Shown in pieces: positions 1,526 to 63,680 of a stretch of DNA of 64,000 nt. Origin of the DNA: Raillietiella orientalis (lineage: Eukaryota); NCBI GenBank assembly GCA_036172245.1, contig JAYWIR010000015.1, positions 1,860,001 through 1,924,000 on the forward strand, read 5' to 3'. A program made the position numbers and the translations under genes. Numbering within the stretch: the first letter of the stretch is position 1; each line of letters starts with the position of its first letter. Under the pieces are notes generated by a model. The model saw only the letters and a program-made list of their open reading frames with translations. It made no database searches and was not told the origin of the DNA.

Positions 1526-2852
1526 ATCTGACTTCAGGGAGACGATGATGTTGAGAAGCGCTACTTGAGTGGAGGGAACAGACATAATGGTTGAGGGAGT
1601 CCGGAGGTGGTCGAGCTGCGAGCTGGCTCAGTGCAGCACGGAGGGAAGTTGCGAATAGGCGAAGATTTCCGAAGTGACCCGCGCGCACGATTTTTGGTGA
1701 AGAAATGCCTGGAAACGAAGCTTCTCGACCGTGTTCTTTCGGGCAAGTCCATTTCTGACTCATTCTGGAAGCGGGACAAAAATTCTCCACGTTCCAGAAA
1801 GATGGGAGTTTTGAATACTCCGCTGGAAGGGAAAAAAAAAAAAGAGGCGAGCAAAAAAAATTTGCACGCAACTTTTGTCATAAGAAAAAAAAGAATTTCG
1901 TAGGTCGGCCAGCCAGAAAGCGGTCCCGAAATGCTCGCGCGCCTCTGCCGCTTGCCGTTTCCTAATGGAATGCACGAAAGTCTCAAACGATACTTCACCG
2001 TGTTCGCGCCGTGAGTTATGGATGGTGAAGTGAGAAGAGGGCAGATGCATTAACAAATCAAAATGAGGCTGCTATTAATCACCTTTCCTGGATCATGGGA
2101 GGCAGGCAAACAGATGATAATCTTCTGCAAGGAGAACAGGCTTCGTGATCGAATGACCGCGAGCCAGATAGGCTCGCTCGAGAGATGTAGTTTGCCTTTG
2201 TTCCTGGTCCAAGAGCTTTACAGAGTCCATTCACGCTGCTGTTCCAGAGAGAACAATATGCTGAGAGAATACCTCATGCCACCGGCGAGGCTACTATTAG
2301 CCACATGCAAGCGCACTGATGCTACCTCAGGAACTCCCCTGTGCCACCCAGACATTTTACAGCGTTTGCTTTGTGCCAGGGCAATGTCACAGACGAGGAG
2401 GGAACCGGAGACAGGGTTGTTGCTGGATGAGAACATATCCAGAAACCATTTCGAGCTCTCAGTACTTTGGTACTGAAAGCTTCCCCGTTGTTCCAGGATA
2501 GAAAACAGCCTGACTCAAATCACGTAGGATTTCTGGGACTGCTGCTACAACGATCTGTTCCCTGAAGATATCGAATTCAACATTGAGGTCGAAAAACCAC
2601 TACGTCCATTCAAAGCCTCCACAGGAATCACGCTGTCCTATCTTAGATAACTCGTTCTTCATTGTAAGCTCACGATCACCTTCCCATTCAATCACTGCCA
2701 ATGGAAACCCATTCCTCATCATCTGATCATGGGAAACACACCCTGGAAACCCCCATCGTGTAATCACTCCTACAAGATTGAAGAGACATGAGTTGTGAAG
2801 GATTTCTCTCCTCCTTTGAACTCGCCGCACGTTTCTCACCACAGCACTAAAG

Positions 2853-3252
2853 TGGATGCTTCAAAATTTCTCTGAAAGACACTTCCCGAAGGGAGCAGAG
2901 CGCTTCTTACACTCTGGAGAGGTGTCAACCAGCTACATGGTCTGCGATGCAGAATCCCTCTCCGGGGAAGGGGAGGGGGGATGGTTCCATTTTCACAACC
3001 GGATGAAAACCCCGAAGAGAACCGACTCTGTGATTCTTGGAAAGACCCCGGAGGGTAAACTTCCGATTCTGACCAGTCGATGGAGGCATCTGGTTTCCAT
3101 CAGTGCCAGCACCCGGATGAACCAGCCGGAGTCATCTTGCTGGGGGAACGCGAAACCCGCGATGCACCCCATTTCTCGGCGTTGATCCTTTTCCAGGCGG
3201 GATTCGAACCCGCAACGCTCTGGTGCCACGCCCGACAGCCGCGAATGCGGGC
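2853..3252 (-). mobile_element. tRNA-headed structured SINE-like element, copy 1 (5' part only)
   Basis: Minus strand has a perfect T-arm GCGGG-TTCGAAT-CCCGC (B-box GGTTCGAATCC at 3200-3210), a second B-box-like arm, then body sequence colinear with the copies at 21656 and 33034. Confidence 0.8.
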
Positions 3253-6517: not shown

Positions 6518-8611
6518 TGCTGAAGAAGAAGAGTTGCTTCTGGCTTCCGAAACCTGGAATCTCGAATTATGAGCTCCAGAAGTGCTTAAGGGTTGTGTTC
6601 ATCTTTGACGTGGACTAGGGAAAGCAGTTCGCTGGAGGTGGAATCCTGCTCGGAGACAGCACGGAGTTCGAAGAGGAGTTTCGGGAAGGTACAGCCCTTG
6701 GCTCTTGGAAAACTCGAGATCGATTTGAAATTTCACACGCGGCGCATCCTCGGTGCATTCCGCGGGCGTGCTCGCAAGGTGCTCTCTGGACACAGTGCTT
6801 ATCCTCCTCCTCCTCCATCTCGAATGGTACTGGGAGTGGATCACAGTTTTACAAAAAGAATACAATCCTGTTCATGTTCATGTAGGAGCTCTCTTAGATG
6901 CTTTCCAGTTCCCTATTCACCTTTTGTTTTGTTGAGTCTGCGACTACCATTCATAAGATATTTCGTTCTGACGCGAGCGCTACAGGGAAGAGCGAGGGAA
7001 GAAGAAAAAAAATCATTTCAGTCGAATCAACCAAGGATTTAGAGGTTAATAAATAACGACAGATTCAAATATAATCCGCGCAATCATAGCAGATGGATGA
7101 GAGATCTGGAAAACATTCAATTATTATGTGCAATATTATATAATACAATACACAATATCATAAAATAATGATCATGATCGACCACTGATTCAGCAATGAT
7201 AATGATATGCATCTTTGTTTTTTGCTGTCTACTTTTGATCTTCCGATGTTGCGCTCCTGACTGATTTGCAGCCCCGAGTTCTCAAACGCGAAAAGGGGTG
7301 CTCAAGGAATATGGCGGAAAAGGTAGCTGCTGTTCCCTTCTATCTCTACAATGCGCTCCAGTTTCTCCATGTTTCCATCTCTGGAAGGAAGCAGAGAAAA
7401 CAATTATGATGATGGATACCCCACTTCCACACAAGATCCATTGTAAAGCAACTTCTTAATGACACCAAACAACCTCTGCTCTTTCCGCGGGAATTACCAG
7501 TAGTCGCTTTGAAATCACTACTGTCCAACCAGCAATGATAGAGTGCCAGCAGCGGCGTTTCCTGACAACGAATGCATCACTCTACTATGAACTGAGTGGG
7601 AGGAGACACGCAGAAGATCAAAGGCGCTGTTAACATCCCGCTATGAAACGCACCTGATACATGAAGCTTGCAAACCCGATCTTTGAGAGCGAACGTCTGT
7701 TGCCATCGTGGTTTCGGTTCAGGAGGGACTCTTTTGGGTTTCGCGTGCTTCTGCTTAGATGATCTGCGGCCTCGGAACGTGGAAGCTGAACGATGTCCTG
7801 AGCAGGATAGAACGGAGATGCCAGAGATTCGACAGGATATCTCGGATACGGGCGACGCCGCTCTTGCCATGCTCTGATGACACAAGCGCAATCAAGTCCC
7901 CTTAGAAGCCGAGAGGGTTTAAAACGGAACCCTGCTCCCAGTTCCCGTAATTCGGTTGCAAGAACGAATTGAGTTACACCGAAATCGAATCAGTTTGGAT
8001 CCGGATGGCAAAAGTTAAAAGGATTCTGCTAGATCCTGATTCTATTTGGTATCTTTTGGCTTTCTCTCGGGTGCTGGAATCCAATTAATGTGAGGATGAC
8101 CTGCGATAAGAGGGAAAGCGAAGCGACGAAGATGAAAACGAAATCTTCAAGGAGAGTAACGCTGGAAACCATCCCGACTCAAGGGCGATCCCGAGCAGAA
8201 GCGAGGAGTATCTGTCATCGACCGCAGGCAAACCAAAAAGTGGTGGTGCAGTTTCATCTCTTTCCCATATAGCGGCATCCTAAAGGACTTCCCCAAGGAC
8301 AAAAGTGCGCAGAGGATGAAACACGGACCTTGCACTCGGCAGAGAGCGTTCCTGATTTTCTGAGCTGAAAATGCCGAGATTCTTCATTGCCTGTCGCTAT
8401 CCCTCTGCATGTTTTGGAACTTTTCTTCTATCGGAGAACGAAAAGTGGTACACGTTTCTGCGATGTACTCCCACTTACGTTTCGCCTAAACCATTTCTAG
8501 GATACAATCGACGTCATTCTGGGGGCTGACAAACCTTTCTTTTCTTTTTCTTTTTTTCGGAAAAAAAAGTGGCAACAGCTGACGCGAAAAATGAAACACA
8601 CATAGTCACAC

Positions 8612-10385
8612 GCCCACGTTGTCATCCGTGCGGCTGCGGTCTTCGCACGTGGCACCATGAGTTCAGGACTCGAATCCCAAACGAGGAAGGGTCGACGCCG
8701 AGAAATGGGAGGGAGGGGGGAGTGAGTAGTGGGTTTCGAGTTCCCCCCTCAAGATGACGCTGGTTGACCGGGTTATTCGGGTACTTCACTGATTGACATG
8801 AGCGGGCATTTATTTATAAACCTACATGTCTGTGGCAGGACGTTTGATCCTGCTACGTTACTTATGGATACGAAAAAGAACCTGCTGGGATCTGGCACGC
8901 AGGCCAGCAGGGTTCGTCTCGGCAGCACAGGAGAAGGGGAAACAAACAAAAAGAAAAAACAAAAACAAAAAATGCAGTCAAAAAATGGGGGGGAGGTTTG
9001 GTAAGGGAACACTGTGTGCTGGAGGGCGTCCTCTGCCTCCTTGTAAGGATACCGGCAAGTTCCTGTTTCAAGACTCCCAGATGGGACCATCTCGACGCTG
9101 TCCTCATGAAGAGGACAGCAAAATAGATGGCGTCCCTGTCGTTCTGGACTCATCTGGCGTTGCTCCATGCGGCAACGACCCCGCGTAGGCAGCAGAGTGC
9201 TGCTCCTAGGGATGCGGCCGGCGTGAGGGCATCTCGCAGGAAGAGGCTCTTTAAAACGTTCATGGTGTTGTTGCCGGAGGGTTCCCAGGACCGAGGCAAA
9301 GCGTCCTACAGGGGGCTGGAGGGTCACACAGTCCACTAGGAGGTGTGGGAAGAATTTTCGCTCCCTGCGCCTTGCACAGTTTGGATTCACTCCTCCCGTG
9401 TCCACAGATGCCTGCAGGCGTTGCACTAGAAGGCCCAGTGAAGCAGCATGAATGCCGACTCCTGTCACTTTAAAGGGAAGGTGCTGGTGTTCATGAGCAC
9501 CGGTACCTGCAGGTCTTCCTCCGGAATACCAATAACACACCCCAGCACAAAAGTCCACGAGCTCGAGCAATCGGGGTCGCAGCTTCGGTGAGCTGGCCCG
9601 TCGTCCACCCTCCAAGTAAGTCCTTTCCTCCTTACGGAAGCTTCCACAGTAACCTCCCACCTAGCCGTAAGGCTTTTGTTCATGTGTTCCCTGAGGGAGG
9701 GCAGCGCGGGGCGAGGAGGTTCTGCTTGCCCACGCACTCTTCACGGGATCTTCCAGGATCTACCGGGGCGTGCAGTTGTGGCTGAGCGCGTACAGGAAAC
9801 GTCTCACCTTTTACGTGGTTGGCTCCTAGATCCTCACTCACGTGTGAACGGTTTCCTGCAACCAGGCGCTACCGTTCGCGGGGGCGGCACGAGATCCATC
9901 CATTTTTCCTCGCCAGCGTGGCTACCTGCCGCAGGTGCAGTCCTCCGTGGATGAGACTGCATGGACGGCGCTCAAGGAAGGACGCACTGGTGCTGCACTG
10001 GTAGAATGCTCCCGTTGACTGTCTGGGAGTTGACCCACCCGGGTTCTACCAGGAATCGAGGACTGAATTCCCTTCGGCATCCCCTTCTGGTCGCAAAAGT
10101 GGAGCCATCCCTTCCTCCCCGGAAGACCCTCAGTCTGGTACCATGAAGACAGTTGATATCCCATTCGGGGAGTTGTCTCTCTAGAGTGTTAGGAAGTGCG
10201 CTGCTCCTTCCATGGACTGCCTCCAGAGAAATTCGGAAGCGCTCATTCGGAATTCTGTTCAGAGGAACAACAAGGAACATATACTTTCCGAAAGTACCTC
10301 CGAAGAAGAAATGAGTAGCCCCCCGCAAATCGGGAGTCCTTCTGGACAGAATGAGGAGGGGACCCCCTTCAGGGTTTCCCACCAA
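8612..10385 (+). mobile_element. tRNA-headed structured SINE-like element, copy 2 (head 8612-8792, body 9989-10385), split by a LINE insert
   Basis: Head CGTGGCACCATGAGTTCAGGACTCGAATCCC, second arm GGGTTTCGAGTTCCC, then AAGATGACGCTGGTTGAC. The body resumes at 9989 with GGGAGTTGACC..., colinear with the other copies. Confidence 0.8.
8793..9988 (-). mobile_element. 5'-truncated LINE copy inserted antisense in SINE copy 2
   Basis: NPNCARRRERKFFPHLLVDC (decayed finger) and VPVLMNTSTFPLK, matching 23790-24330. 3'UTR nearly the same as 48997-49198. Flanked by a degenerate 13-bp TSD: GGTACTTCACTGA (8780-8792) / GGTGCTGCACTGG (9989-10001). Confidence 0.85.
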
Positions 10386-11504
10386 GTACAACATAACATA
10401 ACATGAGATAGAAAAGAAAACGAGGTAGATGTTGAGTGATGGAGTTGCAGAAGGAATGCAGGCAACAAGAAACGAGATGGAGTGAAGATGAAGAGTGTAA
10501 ACGTGCCGTGGTTCTTTACAGAGAGTAGTTAATGCAGGTTCACCCCAGCTAAACGTTTCCCACTGGACCACAAAATATTCTTCAACGTCTTTATGTGGTG
10601 CATAGCATCCAAACGTGTGTGGGTGGTATGCGAAGGAACGGCATGCCGAGTGCTTTGCGATCGATGGGTATTTTCTCGTAGAAACGCACATTTTGCCTCG
10701 TGGGCCGGGTTCTTTTTCTCATGGTGAGTGGATTTTGAGGATAAAGCAAAGTTTCCGTGTGAAATGGAAATGCTCCTAGAAATGCAGAGAGCAAAGAATC
10801 TGTCAGTCTTTCAAGACGGTCGTGAAGGCGGCCGCCTTCACAACTGTCTTCCTATGAATTCAGGCAAACAGTAAAAAGGAGCTCCATGGTCCAGTCCTTT
10901 CCACGCAGCTCTGCGAACACATGGAAACCCTGATGGAGTATCAGTTTAAGACCGCAATAGACAAGCTCGGAAATGAGTTTCAGCAAACGGAAGCCACGTC
11001 CCTCTGTGGATCTCAGAACGCGGAAGGGGAAGTTGATTTTGTAGGTAAGTATAGCTTTGGGAGCATCAGAAGTCCATCGTAGGAGGAGAACAGAGAGTTC
11101 ATGATAAGAAAAGCCGAGGAAATTCACAAAGAGAGCAATCCGTAACTGATTGTCGCTTCCACAGCGTGTTGATTAGAACCGAACATCTGGACTGGAGAAC
11201 GAATTTGGAAACTGCTGGGAATAATCAGAGACAAACTATTAGTGTTTACCTAGGAAACTCTCCAAGAAAACAATGCCTTGAGTCAAATCAATTTGTTCCT
11301 GGAAGAAATGCCGCAATTGGTTAGATCCTATGCAATGAAGACATGGAAAGAAGAAACATCTCTGCTGCAAATGATTGGAGGTTTTAGAGGAAGTTTCACA
11401 TTAAACAGATTGTTTCTCCCAGTGTTTCTTTTATGAAAGAGCAGGTTGATGAGGGTGCAAAGTGGCCATTCCAAACAAGTATTCCTGGCTCCTGATCCTT
11501 GCTG

Positions 11505-19785: not shown

Positions 19786-21655
19786 ACATTAGGGAGTTTT
19801 CACCCGGTCACGCCGGGGCGTTTATTAAAAAACACTTTACATTTGCGGTACTAGGCCCCGCTACGGCCAATATTTCATGGGACCTGCCAGGAAGCCGGTT
19901 CTGAGGCCAGCTTGTCCTCCTCGGCAGCGGAGGGGATAGGGGGTAAAACAAAAAGAAAAATAAATGAAATAACAAAAAGAAACTATTTGGGGGGCCGGGA
20001 AGGGATCACAACCCGCTAGAGGAAGAGACTATCCTTTCCAGGATGCCCTCGAGGTCCCTCATCATAGCTCCCAGATGGGACCAGCCGATCGCGATTCGCA
20101 GGTAGCGACCCGCGTGTACGATGGGGTCCCTGTCGCTGCTTCCTCTGTTGGCTGCGCTCCAGGCGGCCACAATCCCTCGGAGGCAGCAGAGCGCTGCCAG
20201 GGTTGAGGCTGGTGGCAGGGCGTCTCGCACGAAGAGGAGTCTCACAACGTCTCTGGGGGTACTGCCGACCGGCATAGGGAGGGTCGTAGCATAACGTTCC
20301 CACAAGGACCGGAGGGCAGCGCAGTCCACTAACAGATGGGGGAGGGATTCCTTCTCCCCGCACACTGCACAGTTCTGTCCCACGTTCCCCAACGTCCAGT
20401 GGTGGCGGCGCGCGTTGCAGGGAAGACCCCAGTGCAACAACAGCGCCGTTTCCTGCCACTTGAGGGGAAGGATGAATGCGTCTCTAAATAACGGGGGTCA
20501 CTCTAGGTCATCCGCCGGGATGCCAAGCAGCTCGCCGCATCTCCGTATTCCATGAGGGCGAACGCTTGGGGTTGCGGCGTCTGCCAGTTCCCTCATTGTC
20601 CACCCGCTTAGATCCTTCTTCTTGCCTGCTATCCGGCAGGAGACTTGCCATCTCGGCTTCCGGCTGTTTTGAAGCGCCCTTCGTAGGAAGGGCAGCGCTG
20701 TGGCCAGTGGGGTCGTCTCCGCCCAAGTGCTTCTGGCGGGACACACGATCATGTTCCGCAGCGTGCAGCGGGTGTAGATGCCGGTGCGCAGGCGGTTGCA
20801 GGATTCTCCACTGATGTGTTTCAACTTTGCCCACGTTCCAACTGTTTCTTCCAGCCATGCGCTGGAGTTGGCGGGGCTGCAGGCCATCCACCCGTTCTCC
20901 TTTGCCAGGGTGGCCATGCGTCCCAGGAGAAGTCCGCATCTTCTTATTTTCCGGCCGGGGCACAGAAGAAAAGACGCGAGTCCTTCAGTCCCGGACACAC
21001 GTCTGGCGAGAAGGCGGGCTGGAACGCACCAAGGGGTGTTCCACATTTTCGCTGCGATGGCTAGAGTCCGCCACCGCAGCTGTGTTTCCATTCGCTTCAT
21101 CGTCAGGACGCTAAGACCTCCGTCCCGACGTGGAGCGCACAAATCCTTTAAAGGCACACGAGGCCTCCCGCCGCCCCACAGCGCGATGCGTAGGAGGTCC
21201 TTTGTTCTTTTTTTCAGTTCACGGGGTACGGGGCAAACAAAAAGCAGGGGGCGAAGGAGGGGCGCCGCGAACGCGTTCCATACCGCTTCCCGTTCCGGCA
21301 AGTGTAACTTGCCGTCCCGGAACGGGCCGATCGCCAACTCCACTTTTTGGAGACGGTCGGACCAGGCTTCTGCAGCGCAGAAGCCCCCCAACGGAACGCC
21401 AAGGTACTTGAAGTACCCGCCTGTGGGGATACCCTAGCGGCTCCAGTCCGACCGTTCTGCCCGCGACGAGTCCATGAAAATAAAGGACGACTTCGTCCTG
21501 TTCACCTCGAGGCCTGTGACGCAGCAACTCGAAGAAATCCTCAAGCGCCGATGCCGGGGTGGACCCGGGGAGCAGGAGCAGAAGGTCGTCGGTGTAGGCC
21601 GACACGGCAGGTATGCCAGACACGAGCTCGGCAGGGTTGCCAAAGACTCCCTATA

Positions 21656-22733
21656 GCCCGCGTCGGAGGCTTTGTGGTTAAGGCTTCCGCGCGTGGCACC
21701 ATGCGTCGCGGGTTCGAATACTTCGGCAGAAACTGACGCCATTGCGTCGTTGGGTTCCGAGTTTCTCCTGCAACGGCGCTGGTTGGCCGAGATATTCGGG
21801 AGTGACCCCGGCGGTGGATAAAGCCGGAGGCCCCCGATGAAGGCCGGAACAATGGGAGTTGACCTTCGGATCCTCCCAGGAATAAAGGAGTGGGGAGTTC
21901 CCCCTCCGGTGTGCAACGGAGAGTGGACCCCCTTCACCGGGGGAACGCCTCCGGTTTCAAGATGGAGCAGGAGCCCTCACGGGCACCTCTCCAGTTGTTC
22001 AAAGGAGCGGACCCCCCTGTTGGGGGGTCCCTCCGAGTCGTCGCTTCTTCACAGAGTGCACAAGGAAGCAAGCGAGAGCGATTCCCTGCGGGAAGCTGCA
22101 GCGCCCCTTCTGAGTTTCGGAAGCGTCCCTTCGGGGTTCTCCTCAGAGGAGTGAACAGGAGCGGTTCCCTTGCGGGTTCCCTGCGGAGAAGAAATTCCTA
22201 CTAGCGGATCCCTTCCGCATTCCCTTCGGAGAAGTTGAAATGGAGAGGACAGCCCCTACCCATTGGGGGTGTCCCTCCGGAGAGAATGAGGAAGGAGATT
22301 CCCTTCGGGATTCCCCTTCGGAGACAACCAGGGTGGAAGGTGCTATACCTCCCAGACGGAGGGAATCTCTCCCCAAGCGTGAGAGGAACGGACTCCGAGC
22401 CCTTCCTGGATTTATAGGGAGGACCGCCATCTTGGGGTGCTCCCTATCCTGAAGAATTACACTGAAGAATTACACGCCCCCCTGAGGGTTGCCGCGGGCT
22501 GAGAGGAGTGGAAACAAATCAGTGTGTTTAATGTTTAAAAAGAGCCTCGTTTCCCCGAGGCACGCGACCGGCTCTGAGGTACTTAGCGAACCAAAAAAAG
22601 AAAACTCTTTAAAAAAAAAAGCTGGAAGGAAAACAGCGAAGACAGAAGAAAAAGAAGAACCCAAGGATTTCCATCGTCCTAGGCCAATAGTAACGATCTC
22701 CTCGTGGGGTCGCTACTGGGCTTTAAATAAAAA
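21656..22733 (+). mobile_element. tRNA-headed structured SINE-like element, copy 3 (full length, ~1078 bp)
   Basis: A-box-like TGTGGTTAAGG, B-box GGTTCGAATA (21711-21720), second arm near 21751, hairpin array 21850-22570, purine-rich tract, 3' hairpin 22683-22721, A tail. Degenerate TSD AAAGACTCCCTATA (21642-21655) / AAAGTCTTCCTGCA (22734-22747). Confidence 0.85.
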
Positions 22734-22979
22734 AAAGTCTTCCTGCATGCTGTCAGCACCGAATCAAAGTAGATGCTGAAGAGCAGGGGGCTGAGGCTGT
22801 CTCCCTGCCGAATGCCACGACGAACTGGCGCGCCGTACACGTGCCGGCCGCTGAAATTAATGTTGATGTACGCGAAGCGCCAGCAGGAGCGCAGATAGGC
22901 CAGGAAGACGGCCGGAAATCCCAAGCGTTCCAGAATCTCCAGAAGGAGTTCCTCGTCGACGCAGTTGAAAGCTTTACGC

Positions 22980-24718
22980 TAAAGCTCCCTATGTCCACCC
23001 CGGCTTCGGCGGTCGAGTTCTTCGACCTGCTGAATCGGGGAACCGGACTTACTGTGAACAGGAAGAAGTCGTCCGTAATGCCAGTTGGTGCGGCGTGGGC
23101 AGGGCAGCAGGACTGGGTCCGTTTGGGGATCCCCATAGTGAGGTACTTCAAGTACCTTGATGTGCCATTGGGGGACTATTCCCCTGCAGAAGTGTAGTCC
23201 CGCTGCCTCCAAAAAGTAGAGACGGCGATCGGCCCGTTCCGAGGCGGCAGGTTTTTCCTGCCGGAACGGGCCGCGGTTTGGAACACGTTCGCGGCTTCTC
23301 TCCTCCGTTCCCTGCTTTTTGTTTGCCCTCCCACAGAGAGAATTAAAAAGCGGACGAAGGAACTCCTCCGCGTCGGGACGGCGGTCTCGGCCTCCTGACG
23401 TTGGAGCGGCTGGAGCTTCAGCTCCAGTTCCGTTTGATGGCCGTTGTGCCGGAGTTGTGGTGCACCTGCTGGTGCGTCCCTGCACGTCTCCTCGTCAAGA
23501 AAGCCACCGGGAAGACAGAACTCACGTCCTTTCTTTCACTCCATCGCTCCCGCATCAACCGATGTAGGCTCCAGCTGCGGAGGGTGGCTGCCTTGGTTCG
23601 GAAAAATCAAGGATGGATCACCTGTCGCCCCACGAACGGTAGTGCCTGGTTGCTGGAAAGTGCCTGGTTCGCACGTTGGCACAATGTGGCATGCAACGCG
23701 CCCAACAGGAACGACGGTTCCTGTTTGGGTGCTACAGAAGTTGCACACTCCGAGAGATCCTGGAGGATCCTGAGGAGAGAGAGTGGTCAGGAAAAATCCC
23801 CCTCGCTGCTGCTCTGGCTTCCTTAATGGAAGATTAGGACAGCGATTGCGGCGAAGTGGGAGGTTAGAATAACTATCTCTGGAAAGAAGAAGATAGGAAG
23901 TGGAAGACGGGCCAGTTAACAGACGCTGCGACCCCGAGTACGCCTCCCCATGGACTTCTGCACTGGGGTACGCTGCTCGATGTTCCGATTGAACATCTGA
24001 AGTTGCCCCGGTGCTCATGAACACTTCCATCCTCTCCTTAAAATGGCAGGAGTCGGCTCTACTGTTGCAGCACTGGGGAGTCCCCTGCTACGCCCGCCGA
24101 CACCACTGGACCTGGGGAGCGGTGGACCCCGATTGTGTTAGGTGTGGGGAACGGGAGTCCCTCCCCCACCTCCTTGTGGATTGTGTTGCCCTTCGGTCCC
24201 TTTGGTTCCTCTTTGCCGCGGCCATCGGAATTCCCTGCGGCAACCCCAGGGACGCTGTGAAAACCCTCTTCGTGTCCGACGCCCTTCGGCCTGCGGCCTC
24301 GTTAGCATTCCTGTGCTGCCTTCGCGGGATGTAGCTGCTTAGAGCAAGGCAACGGGAGGACCTCGCGATAAGGGTGCCATCCAATGTGCCGCCGAATTTT
24401 TGGAGAGGGCGACGCGATGGCCCCACCTGGATCCAGTAATACAGAGAGAGCTTGCCGGCATTCTGCGAAGGATGCAACGGCCCCAGCAGCAACAGTGATC
24501 CCTTTCCGCACCCTCCCACGTTTTCTTTTGTTTTTGTTTAGTTTTTTTGTTTGTCTCCCCTTCCCCCTGCTGCCGTGGTGCACCGTACTGGTCTGCGAAC
24601 TGGTGACCCAGCAGACTCTGTGTTTCTTCGTGCGTGGCTGGCGCAATGGTCCAGCCACTGCACGTCTTTGTTAAAGTTTGTTCTTATAATAAACGCCCCG
24701 GCGGAACTCGGGTGAAAA
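22980..24718 (+). mobile_element. 5'-truncated LINE copy inserted antisense in the host RT
   Basis: LTVNRKKS, YFKYLDVPLG and CVRCGERESLPHLLVDC; terminal AATAAACGCCCCGGCGGAACTCGGGTG-A4. 15-bp TSD TTGAAAGCTTTACGC (22965-22979) / TCGAAAGCGTTACGC (24719-24733) duplicates the host D.RKAFD codons. Confidence 0.92.
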
Positions 24719-25508: not shown

Positions 25509-27344
25509 ACAAACGTTGGTTGCGGCTGAGCATTTCCGGCCCTGATCGTCAAGCAGACAGCTGCTCCAGACTACCAGACCTGGCTCTCGGCCATGGACTT
25601 GTACTCCGCAAGATGCCCGACATCCGAACATAGGGAGAATGTGCAGTCCTGCAGAAACGCTCTGCTGTTGGCCACGCCTTTCCCAAAGCCGCGAGGGAGC
25701 AGGAGCAAAGGGAACCGGCAGCAGAACTCGCGGATCGATCTTTCCAGATCGTCCCAATCCACAAGTACCTGAACGACCAAGCCCCGGAGGTGCTGGCGGG
25801 GGTGCTCCGCCGCAACAGGATTTTTCAACCAGTCGATCGGCATGCTCCAGACGTGCGTCGGAGGGCCCTTGCCAGGCAGGAAGAGCTCAAACTCCAGCCT
25901 GTGTGGTCGGAAAGCCCGGACGGCATGAGACCTCTTCGACCCACTCGACAGAGCAGGTGATCATCGAGGAACGGATGGTCCGGCAACGCTCGCATCCCAG
26001 GATCGTCGGCCAGCAAATTCAAAGCGTGCACGGAAGCGCACACCTCGTTCACCAGTCTCTTCTCCCGGCGACGGTGAGTCTCGTCCGATAGCACGTGGAC
26101 GTTAAAGTCCCCGGCAACGAGGGTGAACCACCTTGGGGCCGGATTTGCTGAGCCAGCGGCTGCGCAGGCTGCCGAAAAACTCGAGTCTCTCGGTGTGACG
26201 CGCGGGACCGCTCGGCGCGTACACGTTCGTGATGGCAAGGTCGATCGATTCGGACCACTTGAGAAGAAGCTGGCCCACTCGACCTTTCCCATCGAAACGG
26301 ATATTCCGCACCGACCCCGCCACCCTGTCCCGGACAACGAATGCAACTCAGCAAGTATTTCGGCAGCCTTGCCGCCAGTGGAGCGCCCTGCCTGCACGAC
26401 CTTCAAGATCGGCCGCTTGCTGTTCGGAGATGCCGTGTATCTCCTGCAGCAGGACCAGATCGAAGTCGCGCAAGGCGTTAGCTATCAGCCGCCTCTTCTC
26501 GAAGTCCTGCAGCCCGTTAACGTTCCAACAGGCCACGCAGACGCGACGAGAAGCTGTGGACATGGTGGCGGATTCCTTGTCCCGTCCGGCGAGGGATCAG
26601 CTGGGAGTACGGCAGATTGGAGTACGCTCCCAGTATCCGCCGCGCCGCACGCGGCTGGCTCGGTGGAGTCGAGGACCATTGCCTCGGGCTCCGAGGAGCA
26701 TCGGGAGCCGTTCCCGGCATCAGTCTCGGGCCTGGAAAGTTTGCCTTGCGCGCGGCTCCGGGTTGCCCCGGGCCTTCGTGCACTTTCACACTGGCATCAG
26801 ACTGCACCTCGGAGTCGGAAGGCCGCGCGCGAGATAGTCGTTTGGCCTGCTTTTTTCCTTGCTGGCAGCTCGATGCTGTTCCAGCGTTGGCGGCGGTTGC
26901 CGCCGTCACCGAAGCCGCTTTCGCCTTCGTAGCTTCGGCGTCAGTCACCTCCCGCTGGCTTCGGGCGACAGCGACGGCACACGAGACTGCGGCTGAAGCT
27001 TTTTTCTGCGCCTTTTTTGGCATGCGGAGCTGCTTTTTCAGCCTGCCTACCTGTATGATGGGAAAGTGAGAAGGATCCCTTCCTTTCTTCTTCTGCTTCT
27101 CCTCCCTCTGCTTCCCTTTTACCAAAGTCCAGCCCTCATCGCTGTCCTCTGGCGTTCCTTCCTTGGACGCGAGAGCCTCCAGAGCCCTTTGCATCCTTGC
27201 TAAAGGCTCCTTTTTGGCGACCGCGACCAGAAGCAGTCTCGCCACATCGCTTTTTGAGCCTCCTTACCGGAAGGTGCGGGCAAAGTGGAGGAATGATCCG
27301 GATTCGCGCGAGGCTTCGTAGCCTTTCCCGCAGTTTCTAGACAG

Positions 27345-28047
27345 TAAGCTGCTTCCCCTCAATCAGTGGCAGCAATCGGCGCTACTGATACTGCACTAGG
27401 GTCTCCCGTGCAATGCGCGCCGGCACCACTGGACCAGGGGAAGCGCTTCGCCGAACTGTGCCCGGTGGAGAGAAGGAGACCTTCCTTACCTCTTATTTCA
27501 GTGCGTCGCTCTCCGGGACTTGTGGGAACGTTTCTCTGCGTCCCTTTCTCACCCTGTGGGCGATCCCAGAGAATCCTCGGGCCCCTCTTCTCGCGGGGCG
27601 CTATGATATCCACAGCCGCAATCGCAGAGCTGTGCTGCGTGCGCGGTATCGTCGCGGCGAAATGTGACGCAGAGAGATGCCGGAGCGACAAGTGGGTGTC
27701 CTGCACGCCATCCGCTTTGTTCAGATAGCTTTGAGGTGGCCCCACATGGAAAGGAAGGAGGAGCTTGCCGACATCCTTCAACGGATACAGAGACCTCACC
27801 CACCACGAAATGCGATCCCCTCTCTTCCGCCACAACTAATTTTTTTGCTAGTTTTTATTGTTTATTATAGTTTGTTCTCTTTTTTTCTATTTCTGTGTCA
27901 TCCTCATTCCCCCTAGTGGACGTGATATAGCTCCCCCCCCCCTTTACTGTAGTAATCGGAATCGGTGGACCTTTGGGCTCCATTGATTCCTGTAAATGTT
28001 ATTTTTCCATAAGAAAAATAAATGCCCCGGCGCACCTGGGTGTGAAA
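27345..28047 (+). mobile_element. 5'-truncated LINE copy
   Basis: WQQSALLILHWGLPCNARRHHWTRG and IALRWPHM; T-rich UTR; terminal AATAAATGCCCCGGCGCACCTGGGTGTGAAA. Confidence 0.88.
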
Positions 28048-33000: not shown

Positions 33001-33033
33001 ATGGCATCCCGTACAAAGAGGGGATTCAAAGAG

Positions 33034-33705
33034 ACCCGCATTGGAGGCCATCTGCTTGCAGTCCCCGCGCGTATCACCAGACGTCGCGGATTGGAATACT
33101 CGGAAAGAAGCGACACCGGGGGCGATGGGGGTGCGTCGTGGGTTCGAGTTCTCCCGAAAGATGGCGCTGGCCGACCTGCCTTCGTGTGCGGCACTGGTAA
33201 CGAATAAAACTGGATGCCCCGATGAGTGGCTGAAATTGGGAGTCGACCTCCGGGTCCTTACAGGAAACAGAATCGAGGAGTGGGTAGTAACCCTCCGGTT
33301 GTGCAAAGGAACGAACCCCAGAGGGGTCCGTGTCTACCATGGAATATCTCCAGAGGGTAGAGAAGCGCCAGTCCCTTCAGGGAGAGCCCTTCTAAGAAAT
33401 TTCAGAAGCATCCCTTCGGGGTTCTCTTCGGAGGAGGAGTAAATAGGAGCTGTTCCTTTGCGGGTTCCCTCAGGAGAAGAGATTCCTGATAGCGGATCCT
33501 TTACGGGTTCCCTTCGGAGTTGAAAAATGGAGCCGACCCATCCGGAGGTCCCTTCAGAGAGAATAAGGATGAAGGATTTTCTCGGAGGTTCCCTTCAGAG
33601 ATATCTCTCCAGGTGCGAGAGGAGCGGACTCCCTTCTCCGGAGCCCTTCCTGGATTTATAGGGTAGTCTTCTCCCGGGGTACTTTCCATCCTGAAGAATT
33701 GACGA
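33034..33705 (+). mobile_element. tRNA-headed structured SINE-like element, copy 4 (3' part missing)
   Basis: Starts CCCGCATTGGAGGCC, has GGGTTCGAGTTCTCC, an empty target site GTGCGGCACTGG near 33186-33197, and a body colinear with copy 3 up to ATCCTGAAGAATT. Confidence 0.85.
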
Positions 33706-47283: not shown

Positions 47284-47392
47284 GTAAGTGATTTCTGCAC
47301 TTCTTTCTCGTTTCGCCTCTTTTTTTTTAAAAAAAAAAAAAAAGGCTAGTAGGGACCTATCGGGAAGATCTCATCGGGTCACTACTGGCTTA

Positions 47393-48285
47393 CCACCCGA
47401 TTATGCCGGGGCATTTCTTAAGTAATAAAAGTACATTGGTGTGGTAGGACCTTTGGTTCTACCACGTGCAATGAATCTGCCGAAAGCCGGTTCGCAGACT
47501 GGCGAGGTCCACTTCGGCAGCGTGGGGGAAGGGTGGGGAAAAATAAACACACAAAACCTGGGTGGGAAAATTTTACACGGGGAGGGGGGAGACCGAGGAA
47601 GGGATCACAGTACGCTGCTAAGCTGCCCGACGTCTCCGGCATCCTGTTCAGGATGCTGACAAGTTCCGTCCATATGGAGCCCAGGTGGGACCGTTTCGAG
47701 GCAGTCTTCAGGAAGATCCGTGCCCAGAGGATGGTGTACCTGTCATTTCGCCATCTTTTTCTGGCATTCCAGGCCCCCGTGATCCCACAGAGACAGCAGG
47801 GAACTGCGAGAAACGCGGCTGGCGGCAGCGCGGCACGCACGAAGAGGTGTTTCATGATGTCCCTGGGGCCGCCCGCCGGGATTTCTAAAATGGTCGCGAG
47901 GCGATCCCAAAGGGGCCAGAAGGTGGCACAATCCAACAGCAGGTGCGAGAGGGCGTCCTTCCCGCACCTGCCACACTGAACGTCCACGCTCCCTCGTGTC
48001 CAATGGTGAAGGTGCGCTTTGCACGGGATTCCTCCGTGCACCACCAGCAATGCCAACTCCTCCTGCTACTTGAAGAAGGGGAGGAGCCACTGTCCCAGCA
48101 CGCTGGGAGCCACTTCACCTCCGGAGGGACGCCGAGCAGCTCTCCCCAGCGTACAAGCTTGGGGCAGGATAACTCGGAGTCACTTCTTGAAATGAAAAAC
48201 TTCCATTCGCCTGGAAGTTTCGCCCTTGCTGCTGCTGTGCAGAACGTCCCTTTCCACCTTGCCGGCATCACGCTGTCCCTCGCTT
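47393..48285 (-). mobile_element. 5'-truncated LINE copy inside SINE copy 6 (same orientation)
   Basis: LLVVHGGIPCKAHLHHWTRG..QCGRCGKDALSHLLLDC; 3'UTR hairpins; terminal AAATGCCCCGGCATAATCGGGTG. Confidence 0.88.
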
Positions 48286-48996
48286 CGGATGGTGGGAATC
48301 ATTTGAGCTTCTTTTCTGTTTCACTGCTTCCTTTCCAGCTTTTTTTTTTCCTTTCAGGTTTTCCTTTTCTTTCTTCTAGGTTTTGCAAAGTGCTGAAGAA
48401 CTGTCTGCCTCCTTAGGGGCACATCAGGGAGCTCTTTAACACCGCCCACACCACCAGGGGTACGTGTTACTCTTCAAGTTAGGGTGTAACCCCGGAGAAA
48501 TCACCGTGTGAATTCAGGAAACGCTTCGGAGGAAGGAGTCCGTTCCTCTTGCGCTTGGTAGGGGAACCCTCCTTACTGGTTGTCTCCGAAGGGAACCCTG
48601 AAAGGAACCTCTTCCTTATTCTCTCTGGTTGGACTCCCCAGAGGAGGTCACTCCATTGTTTCTTTCGGAAGGGAACCCGTAAAGCATCCGAGAATTTCCT
48701 CTCCAGAGAAAACCCGGATGGGAAGTGCTCTCTGCTCCTCCTCTAGAGAGAACCCTGAAGGAACGCTTCCGAATTTTCTCTGGAGGATCGCTCCCGAAGG
48801 GGACAGTGCGCTTCTTGACCCTCTGGAGAGGTATCGGTCCACCAGCTCCATGGCAGCGATGCAGGGTTGTCCCTTGAAGGGGGGACGGCTCCATTCTCAT
48901 AGCCGAAGGGGAACTTCGAAGGGAACTATCTCCTTGATGCCTGGGCGAATCCCGGGGGGTCAGTGGAGGACATCCGGAATCCACCAGTGCAGCACT

Positions 48997-49198
48997 GCCC
49001 CCCTCCCCCATTTTTTTGACTGCATTTTTTGTTTTGTTTGTTTCCCCTTCCCCTGTGCTGCCGGGGCGAACCCTGCTGGTCTGCGTGCCAGATCCCAGCA
49101 GGTTCCTTTTCGTATTCATAAGTAACGTGGCAGGATCCAGCGTCCTGCCACAGACATGTAGGTTTAGAAATAAGCGCCCCGGTGTGACCGGCTGTCAG
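48997..49198 (+). mobile_element. 202-bp LINE 3'UTR-only insert, antisense in SINE copy 6
   Basis: Perfect 13-bp TSD CCAGTGCAGCACT (48984-48996 / 49199-49211). Sequence matches the 3'UTR of 8793-9000. Confidence 0.92.
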
Positions 49199-51744
49199 CC
49201 AGTGCAGCACTCGAATACGTCAACCAGCGTCATCTTGCGAAGGGAACTCGACACCCGCGACGCACCCCATTTCTCATCGCCGATCTTTCCCCGGGTGAGA
49301 TTCGAACTCGCGACGCCCGGTAACACGTTCGAAGACTCCGGCCACGCATGGCCTCCAACGCGGGCTTCACCTCTTTTCTCACGCGTGCAAGCGGTGCCCT
49401 CACTTTCCCCACGTCAGCTTCTGCAGGCAAAGAGGCGTGCTTTCGTTCGGATCCGCCGATTGGGGCTAAAGGGAGCGTTTGCGGTTGTGCCCAATGCATT
49501 GACCCACCCGCCCACCTTCGAAGAGCACCTGAAACGGTAGGCACCGCCGCCTCTGACGCTACTTTTACGCCTTTTCCACACGGCCCGGTTCGCGTCTGAT
49601 GCCCTCTGTCTTGGTGGTGTGGGCGGCGACGTGATTTGTCAAAGTCCCTTTTCGAGGTTTACTCTTAGTCTGCACGCCGGTGTGCCTGGGTATGCCCGCT
49701 CGTAAACCTGTAACTATGTAGGAAACGTCACCAGGAAGCGCTTTCGTCACATGGATTGCATGTGGACATGACATGTTCGATGTCGCGTTAATGTTGATAA
49801 ATGTCTTCGTAAAGTTGCGCTGACTGACACGCGCTGTCCATTATCTGATCGGCGCTTCTACACTTGTGACCTCATGCGGATGACCTATAACAACCCATTC
49901 CCCTTTTCGTTGCAGAATTGCGTCTTCTTTCCTTTAGGTGGCCGCCGTGTGCTCCCCTTTAACGATAGCGGTGGCACGCACAGCTCGTGCACATACCTTG
50001 GGTCTTTTTCCTTAATCGTTTGTTGGTGTCTTCGCCATCAGCTGCTCCGGGGGATCATGCTTCTCCTCCTTACTTTAGTCTCAGGGTCTACCTAGCTACC
50101 GTTTTCTTCCTAGGTCTTGCGCTCTTTCGTTTCCCTCGCTATAGAACGACGTCAGATGCACATTAGACACGGATTCCCTCATGAAACTCCTGGTGGCCTT
50201 TTTCGCTCTCTTGATGGAGCTTCACCTCATCTGCAGCTGGCGTACGCTGCACCCATGGAAACAACCAGCACATGAGTTGGTTGCTCTCGACACAAAGTGA
50301 GACAGGAACCAATGCAAGAGTACCGCACGTGTATTCTCGAACTTTCCGGCAGTTTTCTCCAGCAATTACTTTGGTGATCCACAAGAAGCACGAAGGCTGC
50401 TCGTCTTGGTCCGTCAAGATCCGGAAAGTTCAGTTCCTGGGTGGTATAGGAACCTTCGGGATATGCCACTACGCCACTAAATGCCTTTCAAAAGCTATCT
50501 GGAGGATACGTTCAGCTCGACATTTTGACAGTCCACGACGAATCCAGATGCTGGAGCACCAGAGGCACTACTCGAAGCAAAGTGCCGTGGCATGTTTGGG
50601 GTATCCTGCTGTCCCACTTTACAGCCCAAATGGATCCGGAAGACGATTCGGTGGACCCGTTTCGCTCTTCTAAGGGAATTGTACCGGTGCGTTCTTTCGT
50701 AGATGAGAACACTGAGAAGATGAGATATAGCCGGAGAGATCGATGCTCGTAACTGGGGAGCACGTTCCCTGTCGTCCAGCGCCGCCGGCATTGGCTGCAA
50801 GGAAGGTCCCATCGCAGGGATCCGCGTGTGGCCACCTGAGGGGCAGCGCAGAACCTCTCAAAGGGCACCACTGGCACGTCTTGGAGAATGTCGAGATCGT
50901 CTTTCTACCGGCGCACTCCTCGGGCGCGGGCACTAGGCGTCGCGGTGTCCGAAAGTTGTGGAACCGACCACCAGTCTGGTAGCGGAGACCTCGGCTGCTG
51001 TCATCGCGCTCCCACAGAGAGGGCAGCTCTGCGGATAGGAGCGTGGCTGTGCGCTCTTCTTGGGGTGTGATGGTGGCTCTTCCTGTGGGGGTGGTGTCCC
51101 GAGGTCGCGTAGGACGGGGCGAAGCAGCTCTGGGCTGGCCCGCGAGATGCCTGAGCCAGTATCCGGAGCTTCGCCTTCGTGGGAGGAGCGGTGGGCCCGC
51201 GAATGGGCAGCAAGAGCGAGGAAAGCTCTCGTCTAGGTGTGGGGGGAGGAGTTGGGTTGGCAGCGGCAGGATTCAAACGCTCAACCTTCCGCAGCTTGGA
51301 GCACGTGAGGTTTCCTCCGCTGCTATGCTACGCGCGCCCGGAGAGCCTTCTCGAGTGCCGTCGCCCGAGTGCTGCTCGAGTGCGCAGGTACGCACTTGCT
51401 TGGCCGACGTCCCCGCTGCGTACGACGCCGTCGTGCCGCCGAGCTGCTTCTCAAGATTTCGGCTCCTTTTGGGGCGGCGGGGCTCCTTTCAGAGCACCGC
51501 CGCTCTCGCCGCCGTCCCGGCATCCCCACGAGCAGAACGACGGGCATGCGACCCCTGGTTCTTGGGCTGCTGACATCGTGCATCCCCACTGCCTCATCCC
51601 TGCAGCGAAGAACTGGAAATAGGGTTCCTGCATGGCCTTTTCCCTCTTTCTGGAGAGTCTCCCCGCGTCTCTCCATCCGCTGGGCTTCCAGAGAGGATGG
51701 GGCTCTCGTGAACTTGCGTTCCTCACCGACCCGTCTTCCCGTAG

Positions 51745-61127: not shown

Positions 61128-63680
61128 GTAATCCCTTTTTTCTATTTCACAGTCGTCTCATCCTTTTCATCATAAAACACCGATTCCGAGTGAGAGTCTA
61201 AATTAGATTAGACACTTACAAACATCGTGGGTTAGAAAGCAAGTCTGATGAAAAAAAACATCTTCACCCCAATTCCTTTATGAACAACTCATCTTTATCC
61301 CCTGCTTTGAAAGCATTAATAAGGATTAACAAAACGCAGAGCTATTTCCACTTAGATTTATGGCTGTTATTAGTTATTTCCATAGCGATTGTAGCTGTGT
61401 TCGTTCTGTTTTTATAATCTTCGTGGATCAAGTCGGCTGCGCAAGAGGAATGGTCAGTAGGAATCGAGAGGACACTTTTCATCATCAACTAAAAATTCCA
61501 TCACGGTCCCTGTAACAACAGCGCTTGCCAAGTACAACTTGCGTGCAAGGCATCTGCAAAAGCACCGAGAAGTATTTTCGTTGTACAGTGTACTTTGCCG
61601 CAGATTGCAGGTGTCCCTCTCCGTGCATTCTCCAGTGTCCATCACTTCCGTTGCATGGAAGGACGAAGGTGGAGGATTCATCATATATGGTTGTCTCCTT
61701 GGTGCAAGCAGTTGCTGAGGATTCAGTGCAAATCTTCAGCAATTGCTTGCACCAACAGATACAACGGTGCAGCCCATACAATCCCCGATAGAACCGAGAA
61801 TTGTCTGCGCGGCCTGCAAGGCTCCCGCGCCACCTATTTGGTCGTGGCAAGGCGTGGCCAAGTCGGAGACTGGCGCTTATCTGCCCTCAAAAGCGCCAGC
61901 ATTGTCCCAGCGCTGATCCCACCGCTCTGCCGTTGTAGCCACTTTCTTCATGGACTCATGCGGAACTGATCGGTAAATTACTTTTCATCCATAGAGGGGC
62001 AGCACGAAATGCGTCAAGAATGTTCTGAGTGCTTGACGCCATTATGGATTGGCGGTTCGTGTTCGAACTGAATGCGTACGGGTATAAAACCCCAAGCTAA
62101 TCTAAAAGATGAGTACGTCGAACGAGCGTAGACAGAAGTGATAATTCTCACTCCCTCCAAAGAAAAAAGGGAAAAAAAAAAAAAAAAGACCATACTTTGA
62201 AAATGTTGGTGCATATTTATTTGGGTCGGTTCCAAGTTCAGGCGCCTGTCTGCCCATTTTATAGACTGGACCCTTCCAGATATGGGACAGATCTGGCTCA
62301 TTCACTGCCTTCGGGAAAAATACCCGTGGTATCTTCTTGAAGGCTCCGCCGATGCTTTCATTCCAATTCGTCGTGGCTGAGAATCGAACTCACGTACCCA
62401 GAATCCTTTCTTGCCCCGTTCGGCACGAGGCGGGGCAAGGAGCATGGAGTGTTTCGCGTCGGAGCGTCAGTTCGACAACGTTCAGCGCCCCTGGTGTCGT
62501 CGCCTCTCTGTAGACAACTGCCGCGACCTTATCAGCGACAGTGTGTTGGAATCACGAGGAAATCTTGCATAAAAGACTAATCAATCCTCATCCCATTTTT
62601 GCTGCGGTCCCTCTTCGTGGAAGAAAAACCGGGCTCATCCGCTTTAAACAGCCTGAGTCAGCAGAAACACCACGTACATTCTCCGTACACCAGAACGACT
62701 CGATAAGACAGCTTGCGTCCTGCTGCACCTCGTGGCGGTGCGAAGCGGACGAAAAAAAAACAAGCAAACCAAGAGAGGACTGCAGATCCGAGATGTTTCC
62801 TGAGAAAAGCTTGGATGCGTCAGGCGCATCCAGGCAGGAAGATGTCCTCCAGGGAAGGAGCGGAAAGCGGAGGAAATGAAGAAAATTCCGGCTCGCGCTG
62901 AGACCATGCACCTCTCTAACTGCGTTAATCCTCCCTGAATCAACTCTCTGGCGACCTTAATTTCTGGAGGAGGAACGGAGCAAGAAAATTGGCGTTCTCC
63001 GTCCTTTCGGCCAGTTGGTTTCCAAGGGACGCGGGCACGGGCGGGATTCGGAACGCACTCCTCGCGTAAGAGCAGGTTCCTGCTCACATCCTCGTGAATG
63101 CACGCAAAGATGATCACCTCCTAGCAGAGGAAAGTGGGTGGACGATGGGTCACACTCGCTGTTTCCGTTTCCTACCCATATCAAATCTCATCACAAAAAG
63201 CATTAAGAATTTCGCGTCAGGCAAACCACAGTTACAGTGCGACCGGACGAACCATCGACAAAGAATTCTGAGCCCGTGGGTCGTCGGCATGATCCCTACT
63301 AAAGGATTTTTGTGTTGCTAAAAAAGAGCCCAGCACTGCACTACTGGTTTTCAGCATCCTTTCGAGGGTAGCACGAGGACCGTCTTCGAGGTGAACCGAG
63401 CATGAGGAATGGAGCTTACTGGGTCCCCCAGGAAAGAGGACACAAAAGCACGGCTATGTTCAGGAAACAAATCAGCCTCTTCCTCTCCGTTTCCAAGGTG
63501 TGCACGAGACCGGGTCTTCCGGGTGCAGGAATCCTGAGCGAGTGAGAGAAAAAAAGAATCTTCGAGCAGATTGGACAACACACCTCTGTTCGGTGCCGTG
63601 TGCACGAGGATGGTTGAACACTTCTATGGGAAGCATGCGTGCAGCTGAAGACGAGCACAAGCCTTGAGCTCTGCCTGGAG

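Follow-up and report, generated by a model that had tools for sequence, protein, structure and literature searches.

Inserts of one LINE subfamily at the same 13-bp site in two copies of a SINE-like retroposon of Raillietiella orientalis

Many families of the Tx1 clade of long interspersed nuclear elements (LINEs), a clade described as found in animals, show target preference (Kojima 2015, PMC4494074). The passages of that paper which deal with individual targets name other mobile elements as hosts: Tx1L inserts in the piggyBac-type element Tx1D, Tx1-Mar in Mariner-N4_AMi, Tx1-9_AMi ~300 bp into Harbinger elements, and Tx1-8_Crp and Tx1-4_AMi in elements with long terminal repeats (LTRs). The same passages place Keno in the genes of U2 small nuclear RNA (snRNA) and Kibi and Koshi in microsatellites, and they mention for the R1 and R2 LINEs that read-through transcripts may aid targeting. 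Here we analysed 64,000 nucleotides from Raillietiella orientalis (assembly GCA_036172245.1, contig JAYWIR010000015.1, positions 1,860,001 to 1,924,000 of the forward strand), a stretch that we call the window. In two of six copies of a repeat that resembles a short interspersed nuclear element (SINE) we observed an antisense insert of the same LINE subfamily at the same 13-bp site. LINEs with a set position in other mobile elements are already known from the passages cited (PMC4494074), and the present LINE probably fits in with them. Within the open-access text, the supplementary figures of PMC4494074 excepted, we found no LINE that targets a SINE.

The six copies were recovered with nhmmer, using copies 2 and 6 freed of their inserts as queries. 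Copy 1 matches at 3247-2831 (−), copy 2 at 8610-10500 (+), copy 3 at 21652-22420 (+), copy 4 at 33030-33664 (+), copy 5 at 46203-45806 (−) and copy 6 at 49450-48500 (−). In a MAFFT alignment of all six, copies 2 and 6 are broken at one and the same column. In copy 6 the 13-mer CCAGTGCAGCACT, read on the + strand, occurs beside the 5' end of the LINE at 48984-48996 and again beside its 3' end at 49199-49211; the two occurrences are identical at 13/13 bases and bracket a 202-bp insert at 48997-49198. In copy 2 the alignment gives a decayed copy of the duplication, ggtacttcactga (8780-8792), and an intact one, ggtgctgcactgg (9989-10001), which agree at 10/13 bases and bracket an insert of 1196 bp at 8793-9988. 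Both inserts are 5'-truncated 3' ends of a LINE and both run antisense to the SINE. The copy 2 insert lies on the − strand with its 3' end (...TGTCAA) at 8793. It comprises the C-terminal region of the second open reading frame (ORF2) with a degenerate CCHC motif and the 3' untranslated region (3'UTR), as judged from nhmmer matches to LINE copies A-D, from tblastn with a related protein (P0001, see below) and from the ORF list. The copy 6 insert lies on the + strand, is essentially 3'UTR, ends ...TGTCAG and matches the copy 2 insert at 170/189 positions. With a shared 3'UTR that is 90% identical, the two inserts are one LINE subfamily, and the window holds no further copy with this type of 3'UTR. 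On the SINE side, nhmmer and the alignment place the head of copy 2 upstream of the site at 8611-8779 (+) and its body at 10002-10395 (+), with the likeness to the other copies fading past ~10395; for copy 6 the head lies at 49212-49366 (−) and the body with the first part of the tail at 48299-48983 (−).

The target site is a near palindrome, (R)GTGCTGCACTGG with the core AGTGC-T-GCACT, and lies ~170 bp into the retroposon. Single empty sites were seen in the alignment in copy 4, where TGTGCGGCACTGG at 33185-33197 (+) agrees at 12/13 bases, and in copy 1, where GGTGCTGGCACTGA at 3100-3113 (−) has one extra base. The region of the site is degenerate in copy 3, and the truncation of copy 5 falls near it. 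Chance is excluded for two inserts of the same orientation at one homologous column with a 13/13 repeat at the insert ends, and we regard the two same-site LINE inserts in SINE copies 40 kb apart as confirmed. The original prediction had described one LINE subfamily lying antisense at the same 13-bp site of two SINE copies, and the alignment and the duplications bear this out; the extents it gave for both inserts were upheld, and the single empty sites it saw in copies 1 and 4 were found at the positions above. A further look-alike of the target, TCAGTGCAGCAC (11/12), lies unoccupied at 1628-1639 (+), outside any recognised SINE copy.

To what kind of LINE do the inserts belong? In nhmmer the copy 2 insert aligns to five further LINE copies in the window, with matches of 850-1170 bases each (E 1e-114 to 2e-24), among them LINE A at 23525-24696 (+; E 1e-114), LINE B at 20975-19816 (−), LINE C at 48264-47409 (−) and LINE D at 18444-17442 (−). 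Matching fragments lie at 671-1457, at 27345-27888 and in other places, and the LINE family is abundant and nested in the window. An ORF of 311 residues from the same family at 20501-21433 (−), which in the ESM Atlas fell in unnamed eukaryotic clusters only, is 57% identical to P0001, an unnamed protein of 619 residues with an intact reverse transcriptase (RT). P0001 is nearer to human L1 ORF2p (E 7e-40) than to R2 (E 7e-17), and the best solved-structure matches of its RT are human L1 (8c8j and 8uw3). Many among the 120 long P0001 relatives listed carry RVT_1, Exo_endo_phos (PF03372) and zf-RVT. Their names are generic; one Vitis protein had been labelled 'Transposon TX1' automatically, which is no clade assignment. 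From the likeness of the RT and the domains of these relatives the LINE family is placed in the L1 superfamily, an assignment at superfamily level and not at the level of the Tx1 clade.

Pfam gave no match at the curated cut-off over the 161 long ORFs of the window and no family at all in the ORFs of the copy 2 insert, and the LINE-domain matches are all sub-threshold: zf-RVT in LINE A (21.9 bits, E 2.9e-4) and LINE B (20.2 bits, E 9.5e-4; cut-off 27.5), Exo_endo_phos in LINE F at 25828-26481 (−) (21.7 bits, E 1.9e-4; cut-off 24.5) and RVT_1, likewise in LINE F. The CCHC pattern, which we take to be C-x2-C-x7-H-x4-C, is visible in LINE A and degenerate in copy 2. Both inserts are 5'-truncated and hence lack the RT core, and the window holds no endonuclease of their subfamily. 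With P0001 as tblastn query we located the RT pieces of the window LINE copies. LINE F is an older minus-strand copy (~27400-19816), which both LINE A (22968-24697, +) and SINE copy 3 (21655 to ~22745, +) split; its putative endonuclease lies at ~26481-25828 and its RT pieces at 25381-24849, 22978-22724 and 21611-20726.

The two inserts also stand apart at their 3' ends. Most LINE copies end ...AATAAACGCCCCGGCGTGACCGGGTG(A)AAA, and copies 2 and 6 alone end TGTCA(A/G). The 3' ends of the other subfamilies (LINE A at 24697, B at 19816, D at 17442, E at ~1526 and G at ~28046) read GGGTG(A)AAA and have unrelated flanks. A conserved hairpin-like 3'-terminal motif, AATAAA-CGCCCCGG-N5-CCGGG-TG(A)AAA, is seen at 24697, 19816, 47410, 17442, ~1526 and ~28046; the subfamily of the two inserts has TGTCAR in place of the last bases of this motif, and the copy 2 insert is missing 8 bases of the hairpin.

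In human L1 the 3' end is a poly(A) tail, the preference for TTTT/AA is loose and the duplications vary in length. The present family is like human L1 in the best structural match of its RT and in having relatives with RVT_1, Exo_endo_phos and zf-RVT, and is unlike it in ending in a hairpin with GGGTG(A)AAA or in TGTCAR. Like the R1 and R2 LINEs of the ribosomal DNA (rDNA), it shows junctions that are precise and recur, with a fixed offset from one cut to the other; unlike R2, whose endonuclease is restriction-like, it is related to a protein nearer to L1. Keno, Mutsu, Kibi and Koshi share with it a multicopy target that is apparently picked by sequence, but their targets are host RNA genes (5S rDNA for Mutsu) or simple repeats, whereas here the target is a retroposon. 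Closest are the transposon-targeting LINEs of the Tx1 clade, as far as the passages on them go: in both cases a LINE of the L1 superfamily, with an apurinic/apyrimidinic endonuclease (APE) that is predicted for the present one, is found 5'-truncated at one position of another mobile element, and no poly(A)-dependent randomness is seen. The present case, placed at superfamily level only, differs from those in its SINE-like target, its antisense orientation, its near-palindromic 13-bp site and what appear to be two events.

The host repeat is a non-coding retroposon of ~1.0-1.1 kb with target-site duplications. The tails of copies 3, 5 and 6 align beyond the nhmmer matches and end in A runs. In its full extent copy 3 reaches from 21655 to ~22745 and is flanked by AAAGACTCCCT and AAAGTCTTCCT (9/11), while copy 6 reaches from 49366 to ~47324 between AAAAGAGGTGA (49367-49377) and AAAAGAGGCGA (47313-47323; 10/11). 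The retroposon status follows from these flanking repeats and from the A-run ends. Copy pairs are 67-81% identical wherever more than 100 positions align, and the copies are therefore old and star-like. Taken together they occupy roughly a tenth of the window. We thus see a non-coding, dispersed repeat with an A-rich 3' end, duplications and, in copy 5, a 5'-truncated member (six-copy alignment), as in SINEs and other non-autonomous retroposons. Its length exceeds the usual SINE range, and the name SINE of the original prediction needs the correction that this is no typical short one. For the proposed tRNA-like head, too, the indications are weak: ARAGORN reported 0 tRNAs, no part of the window matched the Rfam tRNA model at E<=5, the head of copy 3 gave nothing with it, and in the head of copy 1 a 17-base T-arm alone (GGTTCGAATCC) matched that model with 12.1 bits (gathering threshold 29, E 5.4). 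A head with A and B boxes that reads as a tRNA, the mark of tRNA-derived SINEs, was not found.

The tail of copy 6 contains a second LINE. LINE C, of another subfamily and sense to copy 6, occupies 47410-48298 (−) with its 5' limit uncertain between 48300 and 48140, and sits in the tail at ...GAAGC^CAGTAGTGAC; beyond it the remainder of the tail continues at 47324-47409 (−) and ends T15 A9. The primer strand at this insertion, ...CACTACTGG(C)^, is reminiscent of ...GCACTGG^ at the main site, and the junction ...GGGTGGTAA / GCCAGTAGTGAC begins like the main target CCAGTG. We take this likeness as a weak hint. Chimeras of SINE and LINE formed by template switching were considered for copy 3 with LINE A and for copy 6 with LINE C, and were rejected. 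Copy 3 has its own flanking repeat, and copy 3 and LINE A both lie inside the older LINE F; LINE C interrupts the tail of copy 6, which resumes beyond it.

We consider it rather probable that the two inserts record two separate insertions by a single LINE subfamily of the L1 superfamily, which prefers this 13-bp site in the SINE-like retroposon. Independent insertion is favoured over a single ancestral composite. The LINE parts of copies 2 and 6 are 90% identical (170/189) whereas their SINE carriers agree at 381/517 positions (74%; Fisher p = 1.8e-6), and this unequal divergence speaks for separate events because both parts of a composite that is copied whole should diverge equally. A faster decay of CpG in the SINE does not explain the gap, as CpG is not depleted: the window has a G+C content of 53%, a CpG observed/expected ratio of 0.92 and a TpA ratio of 0.48. 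Furthermore, the 5' truncations differ (1196 vs 202 bp) and each is flush with the duplication; in copy 2 the LINE homology begins <=5 bases from 9988 (nhmmer). A tblastn match at 10051-9881 appeared to carry the LINE past 9988 into the SINE, but has only 2 matching residues beyond the junction and was dismissed as a chance extension. In a maximum-likelihood (ML) tree of the six SINE copies the pair of copies 3 and 4 alone is supported (100/99). Copy 2 pairs with copy 5 (62/57), with which it has an indel of ~15 bases in common that copies 6 and 1 are without. Of 200 bootstrap trees, 3% unite copies 2 and 6 in one clade, and the path from one to the other measures 0.56 changes per site. The copy 2 insert, read in SINE sense, contains four runs of T>=4 (9355, 9674, 9809 and 9903). 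Such runs would stop RNA polymerase III (Pol III) and hinder the copying of a composite of the copy 2 type, on the assumption that the SINE is a Pol III unit.

Several points weigh against this reading. The gappy alignment of the SINE body may understate its identity; the safer comparison of the head alone gives 116/152 (76%, p = 0.001 against the LINE parts). The approximately unbiased (AU) test does not reject a clade of copies 2 and 6 (p = 0.166); on its own the tree is therefore not decisive. Given its 10/11 flanks, copy 6 may be young and derive from a master in which the 202-bp insert was present beforehand. The entry of the LINE into copy 6 is not datable to after the retroposition of that copy, and the events in copies 2 and 6 stay separate either way. 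Site selectivity rests on n=2 copies, and both the copy 4 site (12/13) and the 11/12 look-alike at 1628 are unoccupied. Finally, both subfamily copies are 5'-truncated and come with no endonuclease, and the specificity is not tied to a protein feature. The first of two explanations offered beforehand, independent and sequence-specific insertion, thus stands in its first half, by the identity gap, the different flush truncations and carriers that are not sisters, while its second half has the two copies just mentioned to draw on.

The other explanation offered beforehand was that a single LINE insertion in a SINE master was amplified as a composite and the insert later cut from 1196 to 202 bp by internal deletion in the line leading to copy 6. 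The common site with its 13-bp repeat would follow directly from this, and so would the atypical TGTCA(A/G) end of both inserts in place of GGGTG(A)AAA, although a common LINE subfamily would account for that end just as well. The clade of copies 2 and 6 survives the AU test, the 10/11 repeat brackets copy 6 together with its inserts so that it was possibly copied whole, and the 202-bp insert, read in SINE sense, is free of T>=4 runs. But the four runs in the copy 2 insert would stand in the way of an amplified long composite, copy 2 pairs and shares its indel with copy 5 rather than with copy 6, and the deletion would have had to stop ~1 base from the border of LINE and duplication and spare the 13-mer at 13/13. 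Joint copying should have given equal divergence, not 90% vs 74%. The composite is disfavoured, and we think it improbable. A single segmental duplication covering both loci found no point in its support and is next to impossible: BLAST and nhmmer show no likeness between the outer flanks of copies 2 and 6 outside the repeat, so the common flanks that such a duplication entails are not shared, the carriers are 74% identical and the insert lengths are unequal.

Two further accounts retain separate events or separate transfers and do without an extended endonuclease site. The insert could have spread by homology, either because a read-through SINE tag at the 3' end of the LINE RNA anneals to nicked SINEs or because ectopic gene conversion moves the insert. 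The identical 3' junction and orientation in copies 2 and 6 agree with this, target co-transcription is said in the cited passages to strengthen target-specific integration of the R2 type (PMC4494074), and the last ~40 bases of the SINE head beside the junction are well conserved between the two copies. That stretch is kept in all copies, however, and on the far side of the insert the SINE sequences of copies 2 and 6 are poorly conserved. Annealing at the 3' end leaves it unexplained why differently truncated copies join at the same base on the 5' side, and gene conversion would give inserts of equal length, so we give this account little credence. Alternatively, independent insertions could reflect a weak preference for a short motif such as ACTGG, with the coincidence arising from the dense SINE copies, which make up about a tenth of the window. 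LINE C, of another subfamily, entered the tail of copy 6 at ...CACTACTGG(C)^, like ...GCACTGG^, and the look-alikes at copy 4 and 1628 are empty, both as such a preference would have it. The window contains 131 ACTGG/CCAGT sites, and <=5 SINE copies keep the region of the site. With a 5-base preference only, two of two insertions would fall on the SINE site with a probability of ~(5/131)^2 = 0.0015 by our estimate, and a longer recognition is therefore likely. An equal stagger of 13 bp on both occasions moreover points to a fixed second cut. A weak motif as the whole cause seems unlikely to us.

Returning to two separate insertions at a preferred site, both subfamily copies in the window share target, orientation and junction, as is the case for target-specific LINEs. 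We infer that the coincidence is due to an endonuclease whose specificity extends beyond a few bases, and that each of the two nicks has a specific position; the near palindrome and the equal 13-bp stagger in both events suggest that both cuts are placed by sequence. The LINE endonuclease would nick the sense strand of the SINE after ...GCACTGG, and the 3'-OH at this nick would prime cDNA synthesis on the 3' end of the LINE RNA (...TGTCAR). The second strand would be cut 13 bp away, after ...GCAGCACT, and the cDNA, truncated differently each time, would be joined there. The whole route would amount to two events of target-primed reverse transcription. A stronger form of this proposal, in which an L1-superfamily LINE integrates strictly and antisense into the near-palindromic 13-bp site of the SINE with both cuts fixed, and in which a different retroposon thereby serves the LINE as a safe harbour, in a genome whose CpG is not depleted, is possible but in our view doubtful.

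We searched for further loci of this kind outside the window. Exact scans with a 22-mer or a 19-mer of the common 3'UTR gave 0 matches in the metagenome, viral and prokaryote contig collections, and a profile search for related loci returned 91 pattern matches and no relative in metagenome and prokaryote contigs each. The sequencing run X1, of low coverage, contained a fraction of 0.10 of the sampled words. Its reads on 8400-10400 at 80% likeness gave 95 short contigs without joints and left 9941-10400 uncovered, and the run is consequently uninformative on truncation points and on filled versus empty sites. A contig of 151 bases shows 0 differences to 8704-8853 and spans the copy 2 junction at 8792/8793; X1 may be the source run of the assembly rather than an independent one. 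At 8766, 4 contigs make up a loose end (consensus ...ATTCGGGGACGGCACTGGTT, agreement 0.68) that reveals more SINE copies carrying the target site, and these contigs end before filled or empty can be read.

The window as a whole is eukaryotic, repeat-rich and made up mostly of LINE and SINE-like fragments. Two other stretches gave matches to RNA families. Adjoining copy 1, 2367-2500 (+) resembles U4 snRNA over the full length of the model (26.6 bits, gathering threshold 46, E 0.052) and may represent a U4 pseudogene or retrocopy that has decayed. A hairpin at 61700-61755 (+) matches the Rfam model mir-1992 with 33.7 bits (gathering threshold 70, E 4.5e-4), well under the threshold, and is probably a mere inverted repeat.

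As it stands, this is a two-copy observation that is consistent with known Tx1-type behaviour. If the site selectivity is true, most 3' flanks of the subfamily would read CCAGTGCAGCAC. A real preference would add a SINE-type retroposon to the landing pads of target-specific APE-type LINEs. It would also provide a site of 13 bp, compact and nearly palindromic and with a stagger fixed at 13 bp, which would be handy for questions of recognition and second-strand cutting by an L1-like endonuclease. And it would mean that one retroposon family inactivates another, by antisense insertion just behind the promoter region.

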